IMG/VR virus record: IMGVR_UViG_3300045131_002907
Coordinates: 11,425 to 75,424 of that record
Source of the DNA: a virus
Length of the DNA: 64,000 bases
Direction: 5' to 3' (one strand)
The notes under the pieces are model-generated. The model searched no databases. It saw only the letters and a list, made by a program, of their open reading frames with translations, and was not told the DNA's origin. Made by a program: the position numbers and the translations under genes. Below, piece by piece: positions 7,064-63,157 of this stretch. Within the stretch, counting starts at the first letter, position 1. Every line of letters begins with the position of its first letter.

Positions 7064-9370
7064 ATGCCATTCGACGTCTACCCCGGTCGTGTCATCGAAG
7101 CCTACGCGGGCACCAACTATTATCGCCTCGCCGGACCCTACTGTACGGTTATGGCCACTTGGTTCGGAGATGGTTCGGGGACCACAGGGGTCCGGGGATC
7201 CGGTGGTCTCGCCGTGGGCACCCTGGTCCTCTTCGCCTTGGCAGTTGGCGACAACCCCTCGCGCATCATATGTGTGGATCAAATCCATACGGACCCCAGC
7301 GTTGATCTCTACCTCCCGAGATCCATCTTACAGACCCCGGTCTCCGGGTACTGGGAGGGCAGTTTATCCAAGCAACTCCTCCAGGGTAAGATTCTACGTG
7401 GGCTCCGGGAATCTCGAAACGATGGCATCATTGACCTCGTCCCCGGGGAATGGGCGAAGTCGTCATACTTTGGTGCTGGCATCGGTGTCGAACACTTCCG
7501 GGCCTGGGTGGGCGCCGGCCCCATGGCCGAGCTGTCATTCTTCACGGATACCCAGCTTGGAAGACTCCGGGCGATGCAGTGGGAACACGACACCCTGATG
7601 TCGCAAAGCGCAGATACTTACACAGGCGCCTTCGCTGAGAAAACCTCGAAGCGGTTCTGGACCCCCGCTGAAGCCGTGGATCCCGATGCGCTACCTAGAC
7701 TCATTGAACAAGCCGGACCAGGCCACCTGGGGTCACACCTCTACGGTGCCGGCCCGGGTCAACGCGAGACCCCACGGCGTGCGCTGTGGTCCGACCACGT
7801 CGACGAAAACGGGGTCAGGGTTATCTCGGCGGCCGGTGGGGTCATCCTGGAACGCCGCATCGATCTCGATGTCCCCGAGGAGATCACACCAAGTGATCTC
7901 ACTGAATTAGGCAATGAACTCGTGGAATCCCTGAAGACCCCCAGGGAGCCCCTGAGCTTCGCGGGGGTCATCAATGCGGTGACCTCGGCACAGAGCGTCT
8001 TCGACATCATTGATAGTGTGACCTCTTACCGAGCCCGGAATGCAGTTGATACCGTGAAACAGAGGTGGACCCAGGACAGGTTACCCCCGGAATCCCAGCT
8101 CGTGGGCCCCACTGGCAAGATGTGGGGGGACCTCCCCTCAACGGTCGAGATCCCTGTGGGCCCCGAGAAGACCAAGAAGTTCTACGTGGGCAGATCAGTG
8201 GTTGCCTTGCTCCCCGATGGCAACGTGATCATCGAAAACGCCCATGGGGCCCAGATCCTCGCCGCAGGTCCCAACATCGTGCTCAGTGCTCCCGGTGACA
8301 TCATCGAGCTCTGCGGGGGCTCCAAGCTCACCTATGCCGCGAAGAACGTGGTCATCCAGGGCTACGAGCACGTCCAGGTCGTCGCGAACACGGGACGCAT
8401 GGATCTCAAGGCAGAACGCCAACTCAGCATCCTGGGTGGCAACGATGGTGGCGCCGAAGGTGTCCTCATCGAATCCAAGAGTACGTCGCCGACGTGTCGT
8501 GCCGGTGACGGCCTCGAGGGTTCCGTGGGCGGCGTCGTCATCCTCAGTGAGTCCGGGATCTATGCTGCGGCGAAAGCCGATGTTGGCGTATTCTCCGAGA
8601 ACCGGGTCGACATCCGGGCACTCGATACCTGCATCCTCGATGCCCCCGCTCTCGCCTTCAAGGTTACCAGCCAGTTCCAAGTCTTCGCGGATTCCGATCG
8701 CCCACTTATTGAGCTGGGGGTGGATTCGACGAAGAGCGTACTCAACGTGGCCGGCGACATCATTGCCCAAGGCGACTTCGTTGGCTTCAAGAGCATGCTG
8801 ATCAATTCCAATGCTGTTATAGGTGGTCAACTCGCCACGGGGAAAACCGTGGTCGCCAATGGTGTCAGCGATGTCTCCAAGGATCCCACGGCGGCACGAT
8901 CCCTGGGCACCCAGATCACCGCGAATACCACGGCGATCAAAGCCGCGGTGGCCGCCTTCGAGACCTCAGCGAAGCCATCCCGCAAGGTGGTCGCCGAGTT
9001 CATCAACCGTGATGTCCCCATGACAACCCTGAAGCTCGATGCCTACGGGTTCTCGTTTATCCGCAGCGCTGAATATGGGCTCCCCGGTGATTTCAATTTC
9101 GCGCTACCCGAGATGCGGTGGCAGCAACGCAGTCTTACCAGGGCGCCCTGGGAGGAACGCAAGGTGGATTCCAAAGGCGGGACCCCAACGATGGCATACC
9201 CGGGTTACGAGATCTGGTCGAACCCAGGTCAATACCTGGTGTCCCCCGAGGCCCTCTACTTTGACATCAAGACAGCAACCTCTACTCTGAGTAAACCCGG
9301 GGAGGACCCCGGTGCAGTGGTCCCCGCTGCGGAAGTCGCCAATCTCAACAAACTCGTTAGGAGCCCCTGA
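7064..9370 (+). CDS. Baseplate hub/spike (gp5/VgrG-like) protein
   Basis: OB-fold-like N-terminus and repetitive beta-helix-like middle (GNVIIENAHGAQI...GDIIE) in tail context. Confidence 0.5.
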   Translation: MPFDVYPGRVIEAYAGTNYYRLAGPYCTVMATWFGDGSGTTGVRGSGGLAVGTLVLFALAVGDNPSRIICVDQIHTDPSVDLYLPRSILQTPVSGYWEGSLSKQLLQGKILRGLRESRNDGIIDLVPGEWAKSSYFGAGIGVEHFRAWVGAGPMAELSFFTDTQLGRLRAMQWEHDTLMSQSADTYTGAFAEKTSKRFWTPAEAVDPDALPRLIEQAGPGHLGSHLYGAGPGQRETPRRALWSDHVDENGVRVISAAGGVILERRIDLDVPEEITPSDLTELGNELVESLKTPREPLSFAGVINAVTSAQSVFDIIDSVTSYRARNAVDTVKQRWTQDRLPPESQLVGPTGKMWGDLPSTVEIPVGPEKTKKFYVGRSVVALLPDGNVIIENAHGAQILAAGPNIVLSAPGDIIELCGGSKLTYAAKNVVIQGYEHVQVVANTGRMDLKAERQLSILGGNDGGAEGVLIESKSTSPTCRAGDGLEGSVGGVVILSESGIYAAAKADVGVFSENRVDIRALDTCILDAPALAFKVTSQFQVFADSDRPLIELGVDSTKSVLNVAGDIIAQGDFVGFKSMLINSNAVIGGQLATGKTVVANGVSDVSKDPTAARSLGTQITANTTAIKAAVAAFETSAKPSRKVVAEFINRDVPMTTLKLDAYGFSFIRSAEYGLPGDFNFALPEMRWQQRSLTRAPWEERKVDSKGGTPTMAYPGYEIWSNPGQYLVSPEALYFDIKTATSTLSKPGEDPGAVVPAAEVANLNKLVRSP

Positions 9371-10559: not shown

Positions 10560-12993
10560 GATGCTACAGGTGCTCATGCGTTCCATGCAGAGCCAGGTGA
10601 ACCCGAGCTTCATGCAGAATCCGGGGTCTGCATCGGGGGCCTATCAACCAAGATTCACGGCCCCCGACATCTCGACGTCACAAGGCTTCAGTTTAGCCCA
10701 GACGTTTGGTCGTTTCGGTGAAGGCCCCGGTATGGCGGGCATGGCTGCGGACATGCTACTCCCCATGTTCTTCAAGTCTCAGGGGGGAGATGGCCTCGAT
10801 TGGCAAAACTTTGTAAATCGTATGAGCCTAGCACGGGGTGTCGCTAACCCAATACGTGAAGTCCAAGCCAGGGAGTACGCTAGGGTCAGGGCCAGTCTGG
10901 GTAATCAGGACTTGGGCAGGGCTGCGGTCAGTGCGCTAGGGATAGATCCTCAAGGCATGTTTGCCAGCACACTGATGTCCAGTGCACCCGTGCTAGATCA
11001 ACTCACAGATGGGCTGGTCTCTGACGCCGCACGCCTTATTGACCCCAATTTAATGACTACGCGTGGCAGTGACGCCCTGATGAATGCACAACGCAGTCGA
11101 AATACGATGTATCGGCTTGATAGCGCAATGGTAGGTCATCTCAAAAATACTCTACAGGAGAGGTCCAGACTTAATACCCGTGGTGAACACTACGGAAACG
11201 TGGGTGGCGATCCCAACGATTTCAAGCTCCGGGATAACGTGTTGACGTCTGGAATGAATCTTGACGATTTCTCTGCGGTCATGGCCGCCGCCGTGGACCT
11301 CAACGCGCTGGACTACTCGGGTAGTCTAGGCGGGGACAAGCTCGATGAAAAAGCAAAGGCAGCTTTAGAAGAACGCGTAGGTAAGGGCAAATATACATCG
11401 GAGCAACTGGCTGCGGAGAAGAAGGCTATACGCCTCGCCGGTGCCACCGTGCAAGGAGGCTCCAATTTGTCACGTGTGGTTGCCACTCTGGGGTCCACAC
11501 TTGGTGAGGGCATGGCAGTAGGTGAACGTGCAAATCTCGCTGCGCAACTTGGAATGGTCCCTGGCAGTAGCGCGGAAGCCTCCAACTTTCAAGACATCTT
11601 ACGAAACCTGAAGGCGCTCGGAGACGCCGCAGGAATGACATCAAAACAGATGTTAGATGCAGGTACCGCAATCACTCGTCAGTACGGTGGAAACCTGCTG
11701 TTTAACACTGCTGCAGCATCGATGGCACAAACTACTATACGCCTAACCGGCCAGTCGTTAAATGATTCAGGGATACGTGGAGGGGCGTCTGCGCTGGAAG
11801 AAGCTGGAAGTCGGCTGGCCACAGAGACCGTGCAGTCAGGGAGTTCTGATCTCACGCGTGCAATGGTGTATGGGTATGCGTCACCAGAGCATCGCAAAGT
11901 GATCAAGGCAGCACTTCAGGACCCCCAAAACGGGGGTAGGATGATCATGGACTATCTGCGGACCCCTGAGGGGATGGGGCTCATAGCTGGTTCCCGCAAT
12001 TTAACAGGCTCAATGGTAAATGATGGCATAAACACACTCAGAGCTATGGGGCATGATGTCAATTCGACTGCGTCCGACGCTATATCAGCAGGCTACGTTG
12101 AAAATCTCAAGCGTTCCAGTCATGTCACACACGAAGGCAAGAAAATTGATCTGGTGGGTCTCTATACCAAGTTCGTTGGTATGGATCTCCCGACTTCGGA
12201 GGCACTGTGGTCTCTTGGAACCAATGCTGTGCAAACCGACGAGGCGGAGGAGAAGTTTAATAAACTCGCGAAGCAGACCGGGCTGAATCTCACGCGCCCC
12301 CAATTATTGGCGGCTATGGTAAGTGGCGAGCAACAGTTAAGTAGCGCGGTATTCCGTTACAACGCCGCGAGAGGTAAAAGGGATCGCAAGCCGGAGCAAG
12401 AAGAAGCTGTTATCAAACAGCAGATAGCTGAGTTGGTGACTGGTACGCTGAACCAAGCCGGAGTGGGTGGGGTACTCGACCAGGTGAGAGGTGGTAAATT
12501 TGATCCCATGAAAGGGGAAAACTGGAAGGCGCTTTTGGACAAATCAAACCTCGCGCTACCCGCTGACCGTGCAAATTTCTTAACCACGTTAGAGGGTGCT
12601 GACAGGAATCGGCTAGATCAATCGAAATCCATACTTGTCGATTTTGTAGCTGCCAGAGATGCCATGTCAGCTGCAAATGGCAACCCTGATAAGATAACAT
12701 CGCTGGCACCTGCACTCGAGAAAGCCGCCGCAAGAGTGAGGAGTGAGCTCGGATTCGAGCCTATAACTGGTTTGAGTGGACTTGGGAAACCAGGCGGCGG
12801 GGCGCAGCCTGTTTCCGGGAATGAGAAGAAGGAGAAGAAGGAGAATTATGAGATAGCGATAACTGTGCACGTTGAAGCCTCAAAACTTATAGATACATAT
12901 TTGACAGCGAGTGAAACCCCCTCCGCTAATAGGGCTGATTTTACAAGTGGGTTGAATAGTGCGCGTCTTACACTAAGGCCGGGGGAGAGGTGA
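10531..12993 (+). CDS. Tape measure-like protein
   Basis: 820 aa, rich in Ala/Gly/Met/Leu, helical, located after the chaperone pair. Confidence 0.6.
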   Translation: METTGPLSPEMLQVLMRSMQSQVNPSFMQNPGSASGAYQPRFTAPDISTSQGFSLAQTFGRFGEGPGMAGMAADMLLPMFFKSQGGDGLDWQNFVNRMSLARGVANPIREVQAREYARVRASLGNQDLGRAAVSALGIDPQGMFASTLMSSAPVLDQLTDGLVSDAARLIDPNLMTTRGSDALMNAQRSRNTMYRLDSAMVGHLKNTLQERSRLNTRGEHYGNVGGDPNDFKLRDNVLTSGMNLDDFSAVMAAAVDLNALDYSGSLGGDKLDEKAKAALEERVGKGKYTSEQLAAEKKAIRLAGATVQGGSNLSRVVATLGSTLGEGMAVGERANLAAQLGMVPGSSAEASNFQDILRNLKALGDAAGMTSKQMLDAGTAITRQYGGNLLFNTAAASMAQTTIRLTGQSLNDSGIRGGASALEEAGSRLATETVQSGSSDLTRAMVYGYASPEHRKVIKAALQDPQNGGRMIMDYLRTPEGMGLIAGSRNLTGSMVNDGINTLRAMGHDVNSTASDAISAGYVENLKRSSHVTHEGKKIDLVGLYTKFVGMDLPTSEALWSLGTNAVQTDEAEEKFNKLAKQTGLNLTRPQLLAAMVSGEQQLSSAVFRYNAARGKRDRKPEQEEAVIKQQIAELVTGTLNQAGVGGVLDQVRGGKFDPMKGENWKALLDKSNLALPADRANFLTTLEGADRNRLDQSKSILVDFVAARDAMSAANGNPDKITSLAPALEKAAARVRSELGFEPITGLSGLGKPGGGAQPVSGNEKKEKKENYEIAITVHVEASKLIDTYLTASETPSANRADFTSGLNSARLTLRPGER

Positions 12994-45879: not shown

Positions 45880-46151
45880 GTCCCTTTCATCGCAACAGCA
45901 CCAAGGTCCTGGTCGGGGTTGAGCCCGATGGCACCCGGGTGTACCGTCACAACAACAAGATCACTCGGGTCACCCCGGATACACGTCAGTACCCCGATGT
46001 TGGATTCTACCCACCCGGGGGTCGCGCGGCACTCTATCGGGGTCGCCAGGATCCCCGGGATACCGTTGAGTTCGCCGAGGGCGTCCGGGAACTCCGGAGT
46101 CGCGGGAAACCCGCGGGGGTCCGCCCGGGGCCACAGTCATTAACTCTCTAA
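45876..46151 (+). CDS. Hypothetical protein
   Basis: SD AAGGAG and ATGA coupling. Confidence 0.5.
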   Translation: MSPFHRNSTKVLVGVEPDGTRVYRHNNKITRVTPDTRQYPDVGFYPPGGRAALYRGRQDPRDTVEFAEGVRELRSRGKPAGVRPGPQSLTL

Positions 46152-46167
46152 CTTAGAAAGGCACACC

Positions 46168-46605
46168 ATGCCAGGTTACACCGCAACTTTTACAGATCGT
46201 GTAAAGCGGACATATGTAATTTACGCACCCACCCTCGCCGAAGCCAAATCGAAAATCAAAACGCTTATCAGCGATGGTGCGAAGCCAGATCATGAACAAA
46301 AATATCTTTGCAAGAGGCCAGAAATCAAACTGTCGAAGTCAGTCGAAATCTCTTCAGAGAAAAAGGATATCATTCGTCAATACCCTTTCCCACAGCTCTC
46401 CTATATTGTGAAAACGCATCTTGGGGTCAAACATCCCCCAGGGATCTTCCAGGAAGATCTTGCCCTGATGCTCATCACTGCGATGGAACAGGGTGAAATC
46501 GATGCGGATGGTATCGACGAGGCCGTCATTGCTTTCGGGAGGTGCCACCGGGCTGTACTCAACAAGATGTCACCGGAGGATCGCGCAATTCTAGGTTTCG
46601 ACTAA
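46168..46605 (+). CDS. Hypothetical protein
   Basis: ORF with SD; lower GC than flanks. Confidence 0.55.
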   Translation: MPGYTATFTDRVKRTYVIYAPTLAEAKSKIKTLISDGAKPDHEQKYLCKRPEIKLSKSVEISSEKKDIIRQYPFPQLSYIVKTHLGVKHPPGIFQEDLALMLITAMEQGEIDADGIDEAVIAFGRCHRAVLNKMSPEDRAILGFD

Positions 46606-46641
46606 GCATTCCAACCAATGCCCTTCGTTAAAGGAGGTTCC

Positions 46642-46983
46642 ATGAAAACACGTTTTCCTAATGGTACACCTTGTTACCTCATTGCACTGAGGCGCTCCAA
46701 GCGCGGTAAACCCTCGGGGCATGCGGTCAGGAGACTGCGCCGTGAGGTCTTCTCCGAGTTCTTTGAATACGCCAAAGAATCTGTTGTTTTCGGCCACAGT
46801 GTTGGTGCCATGGTTTTCCGACTTCGTGATGGTGTCGACCCCCGGGAAGCCCTGCGGTACTGGCCGGATCACGGGGTCTGCCCGGCCTGCTTGCACCGGG
46901 CCATCACAGCGGGGACATGCTGTTTGTGTGGTGCCGACCCCGACAAGGTGGAATCACCATACAAACCAAAGGCGGAGACATGA
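46642..46983 (+). CDS. Zn-finger protein, tandem paralog A
   Basis: SD AAGGAGG and DHGVCPAC...CCLCG motif. Confidence 0.65.
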   Translation: MKTRFPNGTPCYLIALRRSKRGKPSGHAVRRLRREVFSEFFEYAKESVVFGHSVGAMVFRLRDGVDPREALRYWPDHGVCPACLHRAITAGTCCLCGADPDKVESPYKPKAET

Positions 46984-47282
46984 GAGTGCCACTTTGCTAC
47001 GCCGAGGCCCTGAAGCACTCGCGTACAGGGAAGCCGTCTTCTGCGGTTCTCAAGAAGCTACGCGCCGCTGCTCTCGCCGAGTTCTTTGTCTTCGACCCCA
47101 TCAAGTGGGTCTACCAGCTTCGCCCCGGGGTGAAGCCCAAGGAGGCCCTCAAACGTGTCAGTGATCACGGGGTCTGCCCGCACTGCCATCTCCGCTCACT
47201 CACCACGGGGTGTTGCCTGCAATGCGGGAAACGCCCCGATGAAGTCAAGAAGCCCTACAGTGGGCCCCAGGAGATCCCATGA
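46980..47282 (+). CDS. Zn-finger protein, tandem paralog B
   Basis: DHGVCPHC...CCLQCG motif. Confidence 0.65.
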   Translation: MRVPLCYAEALKHSRTGKPSSAVLKKLRAAALAEFFVFDPIKWVYQLRPGVKPKEALKRVSDHGVCPHCHLRSLTTGCCLQCGKRPDEVKKPYSGPQEIP

Positions 47283-47749
47283 AACACTGTACACCGGCGC
47301 CATCGTTTTGCTGTGTTATCACCGAGGGTCAGCGGATTCTTCGCATGAGACCCCCGCGGCGCTCGCTCCCCAAAGCCCAGATGGATGTCGCCCTCTGGAA
47401 GAAAGCCCACCCCGATTATGTCGAACGCCGAGATGGCAGCCTACCCCGTGTTGTCGCCACGCTCACGGGGTTTATCTGGGATGTCGAGGTCCCAGACCGA
47501 TTCAAGTGGACCCGCTTCGTGAAACCAACGCCAGCGGTGGTCGCCCGATATCTCTCGACATATACTCAGACCCCACAGGCGGGTCCGTTTGGGCGTTCCC
47601 AGTACCGTCTCAAGTTGAAGCGAGTTGACTGGAGGGGTTACCTGACATGTAACAACTGGCTCATCAAGGCCTGGGTGGAGTGGCCCCTGGCAGTCGATGT
47701 CAATCTGGTGACCCCGCGAGAAATCGAGTTCATCTGTCCCGTTCTCTAA
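47279..47749 (+). CDS. Hypothetical protein, C-terminus replaced by the TnpB element insertion
   Basis: The last codons lie inside the element's right end. Confidence 0.5.
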   Translation: MKHCTPAPSFCCVITEGQRILRMRPPRRSLPKAQMDVALWKKAHPDYVERRDGSLPRVVATLTGFIWDVEVPDRFKWTRFVKPTPAVVARYLSTYTQTPQAGPFGRSQYRLKLKRVDWRGYLTCNNWLIKAWVEWPLAVDVNLVTPREIEFICPVL

Positions 47750-47885
47750 TTAGTTACCAGAATCTCACAATTCTGGGATTTCATTAGTTCCTGGTTCATC
47801 GACGGCAGTTTCGTATTTGTCCTGCGACGAATACCAGAGCTCCCAGTCTCCCCAGGCGTTGATTCCCGCACACGTGCGGTATTGA
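47720..47885 (-). ncRNA. Predicted omega/reRNA of TnpB with flanking guide
   Basis: Overlaps the tnpB 3' end. Contains ACCGCACGTGTGCGGGAA...GTCGATGAACCAGGAA and the hairpin CCAGAAT..ATTCTGG. Confidence 0.55.
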
Positions 47886-48981
47886 ATAGATTTAAGCCCT
47901 GAGAACGAATGTTCTCAGCGGCGTTTTCATCCCTGTCATGGACTCTTCCACAATGTGGGCAAGCCCACTCGCGAACTGACAGTGGTAGAGATTCCATTAG
48001 AAATCCACAACCACTGCAGGTCTTGGATGATGGAAAGAACCTATCGACTTCTTGGATGGCATCTGCCTTGTACCCAAGTTGTCTCACGATCTCACCCCAG
48101 CCGACATCGCTGATGGCCCTGGCGAGACAGTGGTTCTTCATCATCCCACTGACATTTAAGTCTTCAACACAGATCACACTGAACCGTTTGGTTATCGCGG
48201 TTGTGATTTCGTGCTGCCAGCCCTTTCGGGTCTGGGCTACTTTCCAATGCAGCCTCGATAACTTATTGGCTGCTTTCTTACGGTTCTGAGAGCCCTTGAC
48301 CTTCCGGGATAAACGACGACCCAGACGTTTAAGCCTGGTGATCGCTGATCTCAGTGGTCTAGGGGCCTCGAACTTCTCTCCAGTAGACAGTGTAATCGCT
48401 GAAGTTAATCCAAGATCGATACCAACACAGGATTCCGGGTTGGGGGTCTTTTCGATATCAGGGAGTTCGACCTGAACGGAGATCCACCATCTCTGACCCT
48501 GGAAGGAGAGGCGTGTCGAGATTGGTCTGCCCTCGAACCTGAGTTCTTCCCGCATCTTGATCCAACCTATTTTTGGGAGCTTTATTTTATTACCATCAAA
48601 ACTGAACTTATCGGGGCCATCTTCCAGCCGAGCAGACGCCTTGGAACGATGCCTGGACTTAAAGTCAGGCATTGACATCTTGGGGCCCTTACGTTTACCT
48701 TTAATGGAATCGAAGAAATTTTGATAGGCAATTCCAAGATTCTTAATGGCTTGCTGGACCACTGACTTCGGGACCGCATACATCCATGGAAACTCTACAT
48801 CCTTAATGGAGTTTAATTCCTTTCGGAGTTCAGCTTCATTGGGCTTCTCCCCTGTATCGAAGCGTTCGCGCCATCTATTCAGGGCCCAATTGTAGGCAAA
48901 CCGAGCAGTGCCCACGCAACGCCGGAAGAACTCTTCCTGGGCATCCGTTGGGTCTAGCTGGATGACGTGGGATCGAATCAC
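47746..48981 (-). CDS. tnpB: RNA-guided endonuclease TnpB
   Basis: N-terminal HTH, RuvC motifs GIDLG / VEDL / DRDENAA, and CxxC-CxxC zinc finger. Confidence 0.95.
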   Translation of the reverse strand: MIRSHVIQLDPTDAQEEFFRRCVGTARFAYNWALNRWRERFDTGEKPNEAELRKELNSIKDVEFPWMYAVPKSVVQQAIKNLGIAYQNFFDSIKGKRKGPKMSMPDFKSRHRSKASARLEDGPDKFSFDGNKIKLPKIGWIKMREELRFEGRPISTRLSFQGQRWWISVQVELPDIEKTPNPESCVGIDLGLTSAITLSTGEKFEAPRPLRSAITRLKRLGRRLSRKVKGSQNRKKAANKLSRLHWKVAQTRKGWQHEITTAITKRFSVICVEDLNVSGMMKNHCLARAISDVGWGEIVRQLGYKADAIQEVDRFFPSSKTCSGCGFLMESLPLSVREWACPHCGRVHDRDENAAENIRSQGLNLFNTARVRESTPGETGSSGIRRRTNTKLPSMNQELMKSQNCEILVTN

Positions 48982-49106
48982 TTCTTATCCATCTCACGCT
49001 GAATGAACGTACGTATGACTTCGGAGACCGAGACGCCCCTACGGGTAGCCTCGGCGCGGAGCCACTCCAGCATAGCTGGTGGGAAAAATATCTGTGATCG
49101 TATCAT
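48978..49106 (-). CDS. Ribbon-helix-helix (CopG-like) protein, 42 aa, not in the ORF track
   Basis: MIRSQIFFPPAMLEWLRAEATRRGVSVSEVIRTFIQREMDKK. The stop overlaps the tnpB start (GTGA). Confidence 0.8.
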   Translation of the reverse strand: MIRSQIFFPPAMLEWLRAEATRRGVSVSEVIRTFIQREMDKK

Positions 49107-49110
49107 GTGT

Positions 49111-49140
49111 AGTATCCTACCCCTGTACGGTGTATGTCAA
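49111..49140 (-). promoter_or_regulatory. Sigma70-like promoter at the element left end (near-leaderless mRNA)
   Basis: TTGACA-N18-GATACT followed by ACAC-ATG. Confidence 0.5.
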
Positions 49141-49232
49141 CCCACCACGATGACAGGAAACCGGGTGGTGGTGAATGGCGTGATCTGGTAGTAAACCCAA
49201 CACCGTTACTCTACCTTCTAAAGGACCCAATC

Positions 49233-49601: not shown

Positions 49602-50478
49602 CATCAAGCTGAGCGCGAGTTTCGCGCTCGGTGCAGCACCACTGTCCTATGACCAAGACGATGGCTTTGCCAAATCGTCTACCAGGGTTCATTACGATGT
49701 CGGCCGCCAACCCCGCCGGATCGATTTCGATGTCGCCTCTGATCTCCTCTCCGAGATGTTGCTTGGTGTCGCCGGCAAGTCTCTCCCCGCGGACCTCATG
49801 CTCAGGGGGGTCGATGAAGTCTATATCAACCCCACGTCTAACTGGAGGGATGATGTACTCGTGAGCATTCAGGCATCAGTGGGAGACGCCGGAGAAATCT
49901 ACGGCCCCTGTTGGAAATCATTGATCGCGGAGAAGATGAAGGGGGTCATCACGCGATTCATCGCGATGACGCAGACCCCAGGAGCCCTGAAGTGGTGGGA
50001 ACGCCGTACAGAACTCGAGCGCCGGCTGAAGGCACATGACAATGCCCACCGGGGGTACATGGCCAGTGATGAGTTCTACAAGCAGCAAGCCGAGATCAGA
50101 GAACACCCCGATTTCGACAACACTGAACCCCCTGACTTCATCGGAGATGTTCTCTTGGCCACCAAGTTCGCCGAGCTCGATATCGCGATTACGGGGAAAC
50201 AGGTCCAGGGTTGGAAAGAGTACCCGCTTCGGTTCGAGGACATCGTGGGATCCCAGGATCTCATCTACCTCAACGATGGGGGCTACTCCCGCATGGGGCT
50301 CTTCATCAACACCGATGATACCATACGGATTGTCATCTGCATGAATGAGAAGTCAGACCACCATGGTCGCCAGCACGACGACGACGTCACCGCGAAGATG
50401 CGGGAGATCCAGGAAGCCGCGACGACGTGGTACCGTGCTGCCCTCAAGGAAGCCGGAGTGGATGCGTCATGCCGCTGA
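49573..50478 (+). CDS. Hypothetical protein
   Basis: Long ORF with SD AGGA. Confidence 0.6.
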   Translation: MASIKIEETSIKLSASFALGAAPLSYDQDDGFAKSSTRVHYDVGRQPRRIDFDVASDLLSEMLLGVAGKSLPADLMLRGVDEVYINPTSNWRDDVLVSIQASVGDAGEIYGPCWKSLIAEKMKGVITRFIAMTQTPGALKWWERRTELERRLKAHDNAHRGYMASDEFYKQQAEIREHPDFDNTEPPDFIGDVLLATKFAELDIAITGKQVQGWKEYPLRFEDIVGSQDLIYLNDGGYSRMGLFINTDDTIRIVICMNEKSDHHGRQHDDDVTAKMREIQEAATTWYRAALKEAGVDASCR

Positions 50479-50753
50479 CCTGGGTAGACAATACCAGAGT
50501 GGTCAATCAGGCACGTGAGGTTCGAGAGCGCCGTGCCCCAGGGTACCACTCGCACTCCAAGATCCTGCATGGGTACACGAACCCCCGGAGCTTCATGGCC
50601 CTCAGCCATGGGGTTTTCGTTGAAGCCGTCGCCGCAGGCAAAGATGGCTTCAGTGCTGTCCAGGATTTCCTGGATGGCACTGAACTCAAACATGGGCACC
50701 CGATAAGAAACCTCATTCTCGCGCGAATCGCGAAGGAGCACCCCAGTGGCTAA
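50469..50753 (+). CDS. Hypothetical protein
   Basis: Overlap-coupled ORF. Confidence 0.45.
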   Translation: MPLTWVDNTRVVNQAREVRERRAPGYHSHSKILHGYTNPRSFMALSHGVFVEAVAAGKDGFSAVQDFLDGTELKHGHPIRNLILARIAKEHPSG

Positions 50754-51012
50754 GAAAGCGAAGAAGACCAAGAAGAAGAAGTCCAACATTGCGACGTTAC
50801 GAGAGACCTTGTTGGTCCTCGAGGATGACGCCGCATTCTCGGGTACCGAGGGGTTCATCCGGCAGTGGAAGGATGTCTCGGATTCCGATTTTGATCTCCT
50901 GGAGAATGGGCATCTCCCCGATGCCTCTCCTGATGTCGAGATCAGCATTATGACCTTGCTTAATGAAGCCAAGGCAGCCGGTCTCCCCTGTGTTAAAAAC
51001 CTGGTTTATTGA
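50746..51012 (+). CDS. Hypothetical protein with Lys-rich N-terminus
   Basis: SD AAGGAG followed by GTG. Confidence 0.55.
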   Translation: MAKKAKKTKKKKSNIATLRETLLVLEDDAAFSGTEGFIRQWKDVSDSDFDLLENGHLPDASPDVEISIMTLLNEAKAAGLPCVKNLVY

Positions 51013-51024
51013 GGAGGGATTACA

Positions 51025-51525
51025 ATGTTCGATGCCACTACATTAGCCAAAATTTGTTACTACGCCCAACAACATGTCAGTGATCCTCAGGCCTGGGATC
51101 ACTCAAAAGAACACCTGGATCACATCTTTCAATGCACATCTTTTACCATTGCTTGCTTCCTTGCAAACAATACTGTAGAGGGAGGTGGCGGTGTCGATTG
51201 GGACATTGTTCAAGAAGAGCTTTGTCAAATGCCCGCAAAGTCTCTCAAGCAGTGGGAGAGAATCATTAAAAAGAAGATTAAGGTTTTCGGAGGCTTAACG
51301 AAAAAGGCACCAACCGCAGCCCTACGTGACTCCATGATTAACATGGTGAACGAGTTGTTAGCCAATGACACCGGTGTTCGTGAGTCCACGTATAACGAAC
51401 TCATCCATCTCGTCAGTCTGATCTTGACAGTTGATGAGGTCGGTTTGCTCAAGAAGCATGTGGAAGCCACCGATGGACAATTCTACTTACCGGAGGGCAC
51501 CTACTTTGATCCACCTAAGGCATAG
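51025..51525 (+). CDS. Hypothetical protein
   Basis: SD GAGGAGG. Confidence 0.6.
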   Translation: MFDATTLAKICYYAQQHVSDPQAWDHSKEHLDHIFQCTSFTIACFLANNTVEGGGGVDWDIVQEELCQMPAKSLKQWERIIKKKIKVFGGLTKKAPTAALRDSMINMVNELLANDTGVRESTYNELIHLVSLILTVDEVGLLKKHVEATDGQFYLPEGTYFDPPKA

Positions 51526-51539
51526 ACCAGGAGGTACCA

Positions 51540-61945: not shown

Positions 61946-63157
61946 ATGGCACGCACGGTATTAAACCCGGCGCTCTTCGATGCCCTGACCTCCATCTTTG
62001 GGAAGGTCAGGGTGACGTCGGAGGGTGAGAACGCGAGATGGGCATGGGATCTGACAAAGACCCCACGAGTACCAAGAATTGAGTACGGTGGTGAGCAGTA
62101 TTATGTGTGTTGTCCGGTATGCGGAGACACCAAGTATCGACTTGAAATCGGGCATCGCCTCCTGACTCCATTGGATCGCAATACAGCACCCGAGATCCTC
62201 AAGTACACTTACAAGTGTCATAACGAGGGCTGCAAGTTTCATACCCACCCCTCATTCGCCGCTGTCGAAGATTACATGAAGAAGCACCCCGATCTCGTCG
62301 GGTTCTCTGTGGCGCGAATAATGAGTTCACAGACTTCAAAACAGAATGGGCCTGAGATCTCGGTTACTCAGGATCTCCCCACCGGAGTCCTACCTTTGCG
62401 GGATCTCCCCAGTGGGCACCCCGCACGGGAGTTCGTGGTCAACAAGTATGGTTTTGACCCCGATGTCATCAGCGACTATTTCAAGGTCGGGTATTGTGCT
62501 ACACCGGATCCCAGGTATCCCGCGGCGTACAATCGGATCATCTTTCCCATCCTACAAGACGGGAAATGGGTTTCCTGGCAGGGGAGATCCCTGGACCCCC
62601 AGGCTACTCAGCGATGGTACTTCCCCACGGGATTCAAGAAGGTGTTATACAACTGGGATAACTTGCCACGCCAACGCGGTGATGTCGTCGTGATCACCGA
62701 AGGCATCCCGGCCTCGATTGCCAGTGGCCCCTCGGCCACCGCGATCTTTGGCAAGGATCTCGATCCCAGGCGGGTAAGCCTCATCGTCAGGGATTTCAAG
62801 ACAGCGGTCATCGCCTTGGATCCCGAGACCATGCTCCCGGATCCCGCAACACGTCGGAAGATAGGAGTCCGGTATGACCCTAATGACAACGGACGTATCT
62901 TTGCGCAGGAGCTCAAGGATCGCTTGGATCGCGCGGGGCTCCGAATCCCTGCCATGCTGCTCAGGTATCCCCCTGATGTCATGGAGGCCGCGAATGCGGC
63001 GGTGAAGCAACGCAAGGCTGAGCAAGATGGCTTGATCCCTAAAATGGAGAAGTCGAAGCGATTGAAGGTTCCTGATCCCGCTGACCTCGGTTGGGCTGTG
63101 ATGCGGGGTCTCCTGCAAGCCCTACCGGCATCCCATAGGAGTGCACACCTTGGCTAA
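61946..63157 (+). CDS. DNA primase (DnaG-like)
   Basis: CPVC...CHNEGC Zn finger, RIIFPI...WQGR, TOPRIM ITEG...ALD. Confidence 0.85.
   Translation: MARTVLNPALFDALTSIFGKVRVTSEGENARWAWDLTKTPRVPRIEYGGEQYYVCCPVCGDTKYRLEIGHRLLTPLDRNTAPEILKYTYKCHNEGCKFHTHPSFAAVEDYMKKHPDLVGFSVARIMSSQTSKQNGPEISVTQDLPTGVLPLRDLPSGHPAREFVVNKYGFDPDVISDYFKVGYCATPDPRYPAAYNRIIFPILQDGKWVSWQGRSLDPQATQRWYFPTGFKKVLYNWDNLPRQRGDVVVITEGIPASIASGPSATAIFGKDLDPRRVSLIVRDFKTAVIALDPETMLPDPATRRKIGVRYDPNDNGRIFAQELKDRLDRAGLRIPAMLLRYPPDVMEAANAAVKQRKAEQDGLIPKMEKSKRLKVPDPADLGWAVMRGLLQALPASHRSAHLG

Follow-up and report, generated by a model that had tools for sequence, protein, structure and literature searches.

The 64,000-nucleotide window analysed here (IMG/VR virus record IMGVR_UViG_3300045131_002907, positions 11,425 to 75,424) carries, at the 3' end of a jumbo-phage gene, a 1457-bp element that is very probably a non-autonomous derivative of an insertion sequence of the IS607 lineage, with a gene for a small ribbon-helix-helix (RHH) protein in the slot of the transposase gene tnpA, directly upstream of the nuclease gene tnpB. 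Since this slot holds an RHH gene and not a serine recombinase, we regard the element as a derivative and not as a full IS607 member, and "non-autonomous" is a better label for it than "transposase-independent". The element was inserted here, and its natural empty site is found in a complete relative of the phage. The 75,424-bp record to which the window belongs (CheckV completeness 35%) has among its genes those for a baseplate wedge protein, for a nuclease of the SbcC type and for helicases; a blastn comparison with a deposited phage collection gave no match. The element forms a minus-strand island among plus-strand genes, with a GC content of ~0.47-0.52 as compared with 0.57-0.62 in its flanks. 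Its parts and those of the interrupted site are:

47739..49195, minus strand: whole element, 1457 bp (left end, promoter, RHH gene, tnpB, guide-RNA scaffold, right end), delimited by family end boundaries, the break in synteny with the related phage locus L002, and GC content.
49107..49195, minus strand: left end, read from the sequence as subterminal motif TACCAGATCAC, a 7-bp hairpin (49142-49171) just upstream of the -35 box, then the promoter.
49111..49140, minus strand: sigma-70-like promoter TTGACA-18-GATACT, matching the consensus at 10 of 12 positions.
48978..49106, minus strand: 42-aa RHH (Arc/CopG-like) gene, its stop overlapping the tnpB start (GTGA), identified by homologues, fold model and fold matches.
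47746..48981, minus strand: tnpB, 411 aa, RuvC D189/E273/D351 and CxxC...CxxC zinc finger, identified by Pfam and an alignment of 32 homologues.
47739..47880, minus strand: predicted scaffold of the guide RNA (omega/reRNA), given at its minimum extent; it overlaps the 3' end of tnpB, ends in GAGAACGG and was identified by RAGATH-18 matches and covariation.
47719..47738, minus strand: predicted guide and target GACAGATGAACTCGATTTCT (20 nt, the true length not being fixed), the first flank bases after the AACGG boundary.
49196..49199, minus strand: putative transposon-adjacent motif (TAM) 5'-TGGG-3', its last GG being the putative recombinase core dinucleotide, from the flanks of related left ends.
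47279..47749, plus strand: interrupted phage gene, whose last two codons and stop (GTT CTC TAA) are supplied by the element, from homologue tails.
49196..49221, plus strand: probable displaced former 3' tail of the interrupted gene, from joining 47738 to 49196.

The lineage of the element is read from its relatives. The closest TnpB relatives (L011, L013 and L015, 59-62% identity) have a ~190-aa IS607-type serine recombinase encoded directly upstream with the same GTGA overlap, a serine recombinase also lies directly upstream in many more distant relatives, and overall it is found in 47 of the ~88 family loci that were fetched. In L012 and L014, which come from a single metagenome, the tnpA slot is occupied instead by an RHH gene whose product is 71% identical to that of the window, and the left and right ends of both loci match those of the tnpA-bearing L013 and L015, from which it follows that the RHH gene replaced tnpA inside an ordinary IS607-type frame. 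Consistent with this, and as a reading made earlier from the window's letters alone (hereafter the sequence-only reading) had stated, no TnpA is present in the element or the window: the whole 75-kb record, where the check for a serine TnpA elsewhere in the genome was run, has neither a resolvase nor a Y1 transposase (no PF00239 match; record 35% complete), and tnpB is single-copy in it.

The TnpB protein has the complete domain set of the family, i.e., HTH/WED-REC, RuvC and zinc finger (Pfam HTH_OrfB_IS605, OrfB_IS605 and Cas12f1-like_TNB), with all matches above the cut-off (OrfB_IS605 6e-28, Cas12f1-like_TNB 1e-17, HTH_OrfB 8e-14). The catalytic residues D189, E273 and D351, already judged intact in the sequence-only reading, are invariant together with the zinc finger across the 32 aligned homologues and align with D191, E278 and D361 of ISDra2 TnpB; the RuvC-III segment reads HDRDENAA with D351, its aspartate not being replaced by histidine. 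The ratio of non-synonymous to synonymous substitution rates (dN/dS) between the L012 and L014 copies is 0.17. To judge by the alignment and this ratio, the nuclease is intact and under purifying selection. An orthologue with 91% identity (P0002) differs from it by 36 substitutions, all within residues 1-343, and by none in residues 344-411, whose codons overlap the RNA and where ~6 would be expected by chance.

This overlap region encodes the predicted guide RNA. A match to Rfam RF03064 (RAGATH-18) lies at 47788-47856 on the minus strand, its 24.7 bits being below the gathering score of 44.9, and matches at the homologous place in L018, L023 and L024 (27.8-31.6 bits) are likewise below gathering; IS607 TnpBs are guided by RAGATH-18-derived RNAs (PMC11061315). 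An alignment of the last ~125 nt of 14 sequences gives a consensus structure of 32 pairs, in which 91% of the paired cells are filled by pairs, as opposed to 25-43% when partners are slid by 1-3 columns, and 25 of the 32 pairs have changed on both sides; none of 500 shuffles reaches the observed values. The window keeps 28 of the 32 pairs, with an outer helix of CCUGG/CCAGG where relatives have CCUGU/GCAGG. Because single-sequence folding of the window scaffold is weak (z = -2.0) and gives a structure unlike the family consensus, the scaffold reading rests on covariation, according to which a conserved guide-RNA scaffold ends exactly at the element junction. The predicted guide GACAGATGAACTCGATTTCT, which the sequence-only reading had proposed, follows directly from the AACGG boundary of the family; the window has no second copy of it, and an identical stretch is present in L002.

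The boundaries themselves were set by comparing family copies that sit in different flanks. At the right end, 14 of 15 members have a hairpin, a few bases and (A/C)AACGG, after which the flanks diverge; in the window this junction reads ...CCAGAATTGTGAGATTCTGGTAACTAATTAGAGAACGG / GACAGATG, the last element base being 47739. Left ends begin directly after NGGG with a (C/T)TATCAAC-like sequence in 9/9 members, the flanks being TGGG (L012, L014, L013, L022), AGGG (L015, L020), CGGG (L094) or GGGG (L019), and in the window TGGG is followed by TTTACTACC at 49195, in the context ...GGTGTTGGG / TTTACTACCAGATCAC. A GG core at both junctions, a G-rich left flank and a right end in ...CGG are all IS607-type features and are present in the window, and the AACGG end and the IS607 assignment of the sequence-only reading hold. 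In the IS607 element CboIStron, TGGG is the measured TAM and target, the core is GG and the scaffold ends in ...UCGG (bioRxiv 10.1101/2023.11.20.567912).

The two junctions named in the sequence-only reading fared differently. The one on the left in window coordinates was exact, L002 being collinear up to 47740 and resuming at 49232. The one on the right, placed at a CCC at 49143, lies 52 nt too far inside: CCC/TGGG is present at 49141-49144 and again at 49196-49199, and the second is preferred because related left ends start after NGGG with the (C/T)TATCAAC-like sequence. With the left end moved to 49195, the promoter-like site that had been placed at the very left end is indeed present but lies ~55 nt inside the element. 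The subterminal motif matches the right-end hairpin arm in inverted orientation at 15/19 positions, which 27/500 shuffles also reach, while the corresponding match in L012 is strong (23/26). The position of the left end is thus well supported by the family, though not proven for this copy. A left end at 49211, as suggested by the L002 gap alone, was rejected, as the TAM would then be ACGG, as in the element's own right end. A separate observation is that GAGTAACGG, at 49203-49211 on the minus strand and 4 nt outside TGGG, closely resembles the right end GAGAACGG; no equivalent stands beside the left ends of L012 or L014, and it could be chance, a recombinase pseudo-site or the scar of an earlier event.

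The gene in the tnpA slot had been picked out in the sequence-only reading as an unannotated 42-aa RHH gene coupled to tnpB, and ORF position (its TGA and the GTG of tnpB share GTGA), homologues and fold all agree with this. Its own Pfam matches are below threshold (RHH_5, 19.6 bits against 26), and among its homologues, at 98%, 76% and 71% identity, the 76% one (P0122) carries RHH_5 and RHH_1. The predicted model (pLDDT 86.6) has an extended N-terminal strand region in the monomer, followed by helices at residues 10-23 and 27-41, and the fold matches listed are CopG, Arc, VapB, CdbA, NikR, ParG and other RHH proteins, with one exception, a small designed protein (TM 0.64-0.81, E ~0.07 for the matches). 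By homology and model, the product is an RHH protein of the Arc/CopG type, with the strand-helix-helix plan of ~40-45 aa and the G-x-S-x-S-E-x-I-R-like turn of these repressors. The L012 and L014 copies differ by five synonymous and no non-synonymous changes (dN/dS 0). An origin of the gene as a leftover of the N-terminal HTH domain of TnpA was ruled out, there being no similarity, and a scan of viral contigs with the RHH profile found none. The -10 box ends 4 nt upstream of the RHH ATG, so that the transcript would have little or no leader; in L012 and L014, TTGCGC-16-TACAAT stands equally far from their RHH ATG.

The empty site is provided by L002, a locus of the 216,043-bp record G001, which has terminal repeats, is rated 100% complete and is collinear with the window at 83-94% identity. 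Between window positions 47740, where the alignment stops, and 49232, where it resumes, L002 has 17 nt and the window 1,491 nt. G001 has neither TnpB nor resolvase, and thus the related phage with an empty site that the sequence-only reading had proposed to look for does exist; scans of viral contigs with either flank gene returned one relative only, and a scan with the 21-mer returned the same relative only. Among seven database homologues of the interrupted gene, four distinct variants end in ...ICPVL and two in ...ICPYY, from which the ICPVL tail is read as made by the insertion, the empty alleles ending in ICPYY. The element is therefore polymorphic at this site, L002/G001 and P0128 being empty and the window, P0123 and contigs of the independent run X2 carrying it; P0126 and P0129 are counted as carriers by their ICPVL tail only. 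The X2 contigs, ~96-97% identical to the window, bridge both junctions. P0123 lies on a 2,045-bp contig, as does the TnpB orthologue P0002, and probably both are on one contig. Because of the ICPVL and ICPYY variants, P0123 and the X2 contigs, we consider that the element, as far as these sequences reach, is common to one sub-lineage of the lake phages, another sub-lineage lacking it. An empty-site joint was not found in Logan contigs of four runs, where rare variants are dropped and absence is hence not implied.

Reconstruction of the site before insertion depends on where the element ends. The restored tail given in the sequence-only reading, ICPTTMTGNRVVVNGVIW and a stop, is arithmetically correct, but no homologue has it, the empty alleles ending in ICPYY and a stop. 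If 47738 is instead joined to 49196, as the IS607 rule requires, the sequence becomes ...ATCTGTC / CCCAACACCGTTACTCTACCTTCTAA, and the gene would end in ...ICPQHRYSTF and a stop 11 nt before the next ATG (49233); this tail and that of L002, CCC TAC TAT TGA, have the codons TAC T(C/A)T in common. Read on the element strand, the site in L002 is ...AATAGTAGG / GACAGATGAACTCGATTTCT, i.e., a perfect 20-nt match to the guide that follows TAGG and not TGGG.

Other copies speak to how the element moves. L012 and L014 have different flanks, and in runs X2 and X4 the right end recurs at loose contig ends beside a second flank. Copies in unrelated flanks cannot arise by homing, which implies a serine recombinase acting in trans. 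Bacterial reference genomes contain only relatives of at most 52% identity (Competibacteraceae and others), so that no host or donor can be named, and the flanks of L012 and L013 consist almost entirely of ORFans. A further such copy is apparent on a 14.6-kb contig of X2, which has one end in the left half of the element and the other in a stretch that matches tnpB 48365-48940 in inverted orientation at 84% identity; a related phage may thus have a second element, diverged from the first and ~12.8 kb from it (at about window position 62,000).

We propose a mechanism that joins repression, guided cutting, repair-based keeping or copying and mobilisation in trans, and to which as a whole we give a probability of roughly 0.55. 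The element sits at TGGG at the 3' end of a jumbo-phage gene, and the ...AACGG with which it finishes on the right also forms the 3' terminus of a predicted, conserved structured RNA. The left-end promoter would transcribe the RHH gene, tnpB and the scaffold with its guide as one RNA, and an RHH dimer, bound near this promoter, would keep its output low in the manner of Arc in IS605-family elements. Guided by this RNA, TnpB would then cut every copy of the locus with TGGG immediately next to GACAGATGAAC..., be it the joint left after excision or the element-free allele of a related phage that infects the same cell, while ACGG at the element's own right end would spare the carrier. Phage recombination would repair the break from an element-bearing genome, so that the element would be kept or copied (restorative or non-restorative homing), and for moves to new sites a full-length relative, located in the host or in a further co-resident element, would have to supply a serine recombinase in trans.

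Spread by homing from one co-infecting phage to another is a plausible but tentative reading, being supported indirectly by the presence/absence polymorphism, the intact machinery under selection, the recombination nuclease of the phage and residue N125 of P0123. The interrupted-gene variants P0123-P0129 are mosaics of two haplotypes, a pattern that points to intragenic recombination among these phages. At residues 3, 20, 54-55, 69, 73, 76 and 107, P0123 resembles L002, but it is carrier-like at residue 125 and in its tail; it therefore looks recombinant near the insertion, N125 being a single diagnostic site.

Several points weigh against this mechanism. The predicted susceptible allele, with TGGG, the guide match and ...ICPQHRYSTF, was not found in any database, and the sole known empty alleles have TAGG, as opposed to GGG in 9/9 left flanks of the family. 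Because G at -3 is the most strictly read TAM position of the one IS607 TnpB that was tested, cutting of TAGG alleles is doubtful, and the known element-free alleles may be poor targets. In addition, the window TnpB matches ISDra2 TnpB (IS200/IS605 family; E 2e-67) better than 8iaz (E 5.5e-37), a 384-aa chain deposited as "Transposase" that we take to be the solved IS607 TnpB, and TAM rules may therefore not transfer; the best match in the structure database is an AI-designed nuclease, 9yyg. The trans-acting serine recombinase was not found (record 35% complete). The left boundary in the window rests on relatives and not on a second copy of the same element, and its inverted match is weak. Finally, one promoter-like site of this quality is not above the shuffle count, and no convincing operator repeats for the RHH protein were found near the promoter.

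The TAGG alleles fit two histories, insertion only at TGGG or conversion of all susceptible alleles. A strong form of the second, in which a transposase-free RNA-guided homing drive has converted every TGGG allele and the ICPYY/TAGG genomes are resistance alleles through a change at a single TAM position, we consider rather improbable.

The strongest competitor of the proposed mechanism is an insertion-sequence fragment that moves only by the recombinase of a full-length relative, whose TnpB restores it after excision and which does not spread between phages. Both ends are kept with their GG core, copies occupy unrelated flanks, at least four phage variants have the element in common by vertical descent, and the known empty alleles, carrying TAGG, may never have been targets, all as this explanation would have it. 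However, neither the 75-kb record nor the complete relative has a recombinase, and P0123 looks recombinant close to the insertion. A lytic jumbo phage, furthermore, lacks the usual sister chromosome but has many co-replicating genomes, which makes the two modes hard to separate. With perhaps one chance in four, we hold such a fragment to be a serious but lesser candidate than the mechanism with homing.

It is a good deal less likely that the two genes form a toxin-antitoxin-like or inhibitor pair, in which the RHH protein binds TnpB, or both represses and neutralises it, as an addiction module, a proposal made for an archaeal RHH/MazE-TnpB clade (PMC10691335). RHH proteins are often antitoxins, VapB and MazE antitoxins are among the fold matches, and the RHH gene and tnpB are tightly coupled translationally. 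But the published clade has a rearranged RuvC-III (D to H) where the triad is canonical here, the RHH protein is a 42-aa DNA-binding core without a C-terminal toxin-binding tail, and transposon ends and guide scaffold are conserved. An immobile and functionless IS607 remnant, decaying after loss of its transposase, would account for the missing transposase and for the single copy in the record, but is slightly less probable still: ORFs, catalytic residues and zinc finger are intact, both genes are under purifying selection, orthologues have no substitutions in the RNA-overlapping part, the scaffold pairs are kept (28/32), and diverged copies occupy other sites. Least likely of all is an exapted RNA-guided regulator or phage weapon that, like the phage-encoded TnpB derivatives with regulatory roles (TldR; PMC13418256), would bind a host or competitor sequence, since TldRs are nuclease-dead whereas D-E-D is kept here, the guide is a mere insertion flank that occurs once in the window, and the element has kept its transposon ends.

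In the neighbourhood of the element, a 478-nt stretch of low GC content (~0.47) at window 46143-46620, with an ORF at 46168-46605 (145 aa), is absent from the collinear L002 and is another small indel or moron beside the element. Window 50470-51539 (ORFs 50746-51012 and 51025-51525; GC ~0.45-0.50) is replaced in L002 by ~260 unrelated nucleotides (7683-7943), and the neighbourhood is a gene-replacement hotspot between the window phage and L002. Two adjacent plus-strand ORFs of 121 aa (46618-46983 and 46917-47282), both present in L002, are apparent tandem paralogues that share a C-terminal, zinc-ribbon-like motif ...DHGVCP.C..R..T.G.CC.CG...P.

Compared with known systems, the element resembles the IS607 elements CboIStron and ISFba1 in the serine recombinase that its relatives have upstream with the same overlap, the TGGG flank, the GG core, the (A/U)CGG end, the possible RAGATH-18-like core overlapping the tnpB 3' end and the intact RuvC triad. 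It differs in having the RHH gene in place of tnpA, no group I intron, a jumbo phage as host, a TnpB closer to that of ISDra2 than to that of ISFba1, and an Rfam score below the gathering threshold. Arc of IS605-family elements, first noted in 2023 (bioRxiv 10.1101/2023.11.20.567912), is likewise a small protein (at most 50 aa), often unannotated, encoded inside a TnpB element near the promoter, and represses the promoters of these transposons experimentally (Moon et al. 2026, bioRxiv 10.64898/2026.09.24.754181). The likeness is by description: IS605-family elements with Arc have retained a Y1 tnpA, and their arc and tnpB mostly point in opposite directions, whereas the RHH gene of the window is co-directional and translationally coupled, in a serine-recombinase lineage and with tnpA gone. 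The RHH/MazE-TnpB clade (RIIIr-4; Altae-Tran et al. 2023, PMC10691335) shares a small RHH gene directly upstream of tnpB and a guide-capable 3' region, but is archaeal, was judged immobile and has the RuvC-III D-to-H change. The presence or absence of a nuclease gene between conserved genes, in a phage with recombination functions, recalls the free-standing homing endonucleases known from T4-like phages; the window nuclease is likewise predicted to cut the element-free allele, although its target recognition would be RNA-guided. TnpB homing between co-infecting phages or plasmids ("transposon non-restorative homing") is an existing proposal (PMC13565253), of which we found no worked-out natural phage case in the literature.

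Solo TnpBs, phage TnpBs, Arc-like RHH proteins with TnpB (noted in 2023, tested in 2026) and the archaeal RHH/MazE-TnpB clade are thus already published. What is new is the combination, i.e., an RHH gene standing exactly where a serine-recombinase lineage has its tnpA, together with a canonical active site, kept ends, a polymorphism among jumbo phages and a TAM-variant empty allele. As the parts are all of known kinds, and phage and host are uncultured, the value of the locus is that of a good test case and not of a new principle.

The persistence of TnpB elements is generally put down to cleavage of their own empty sites, and their spread between co-infecting phages or plasmids is a proposal. 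The present locus offers a natural test system, with carriers and non-carriers among close jumbo phages, a defined guide, a putative TAM, and an empty allele that differs at the very TAM position expected to matter most. It also shows that an Arc-like RHH protein can occupy the transposase slot in a serine-recombinase lineage, which would extend the regulation described for Arc in IS605-family elements.

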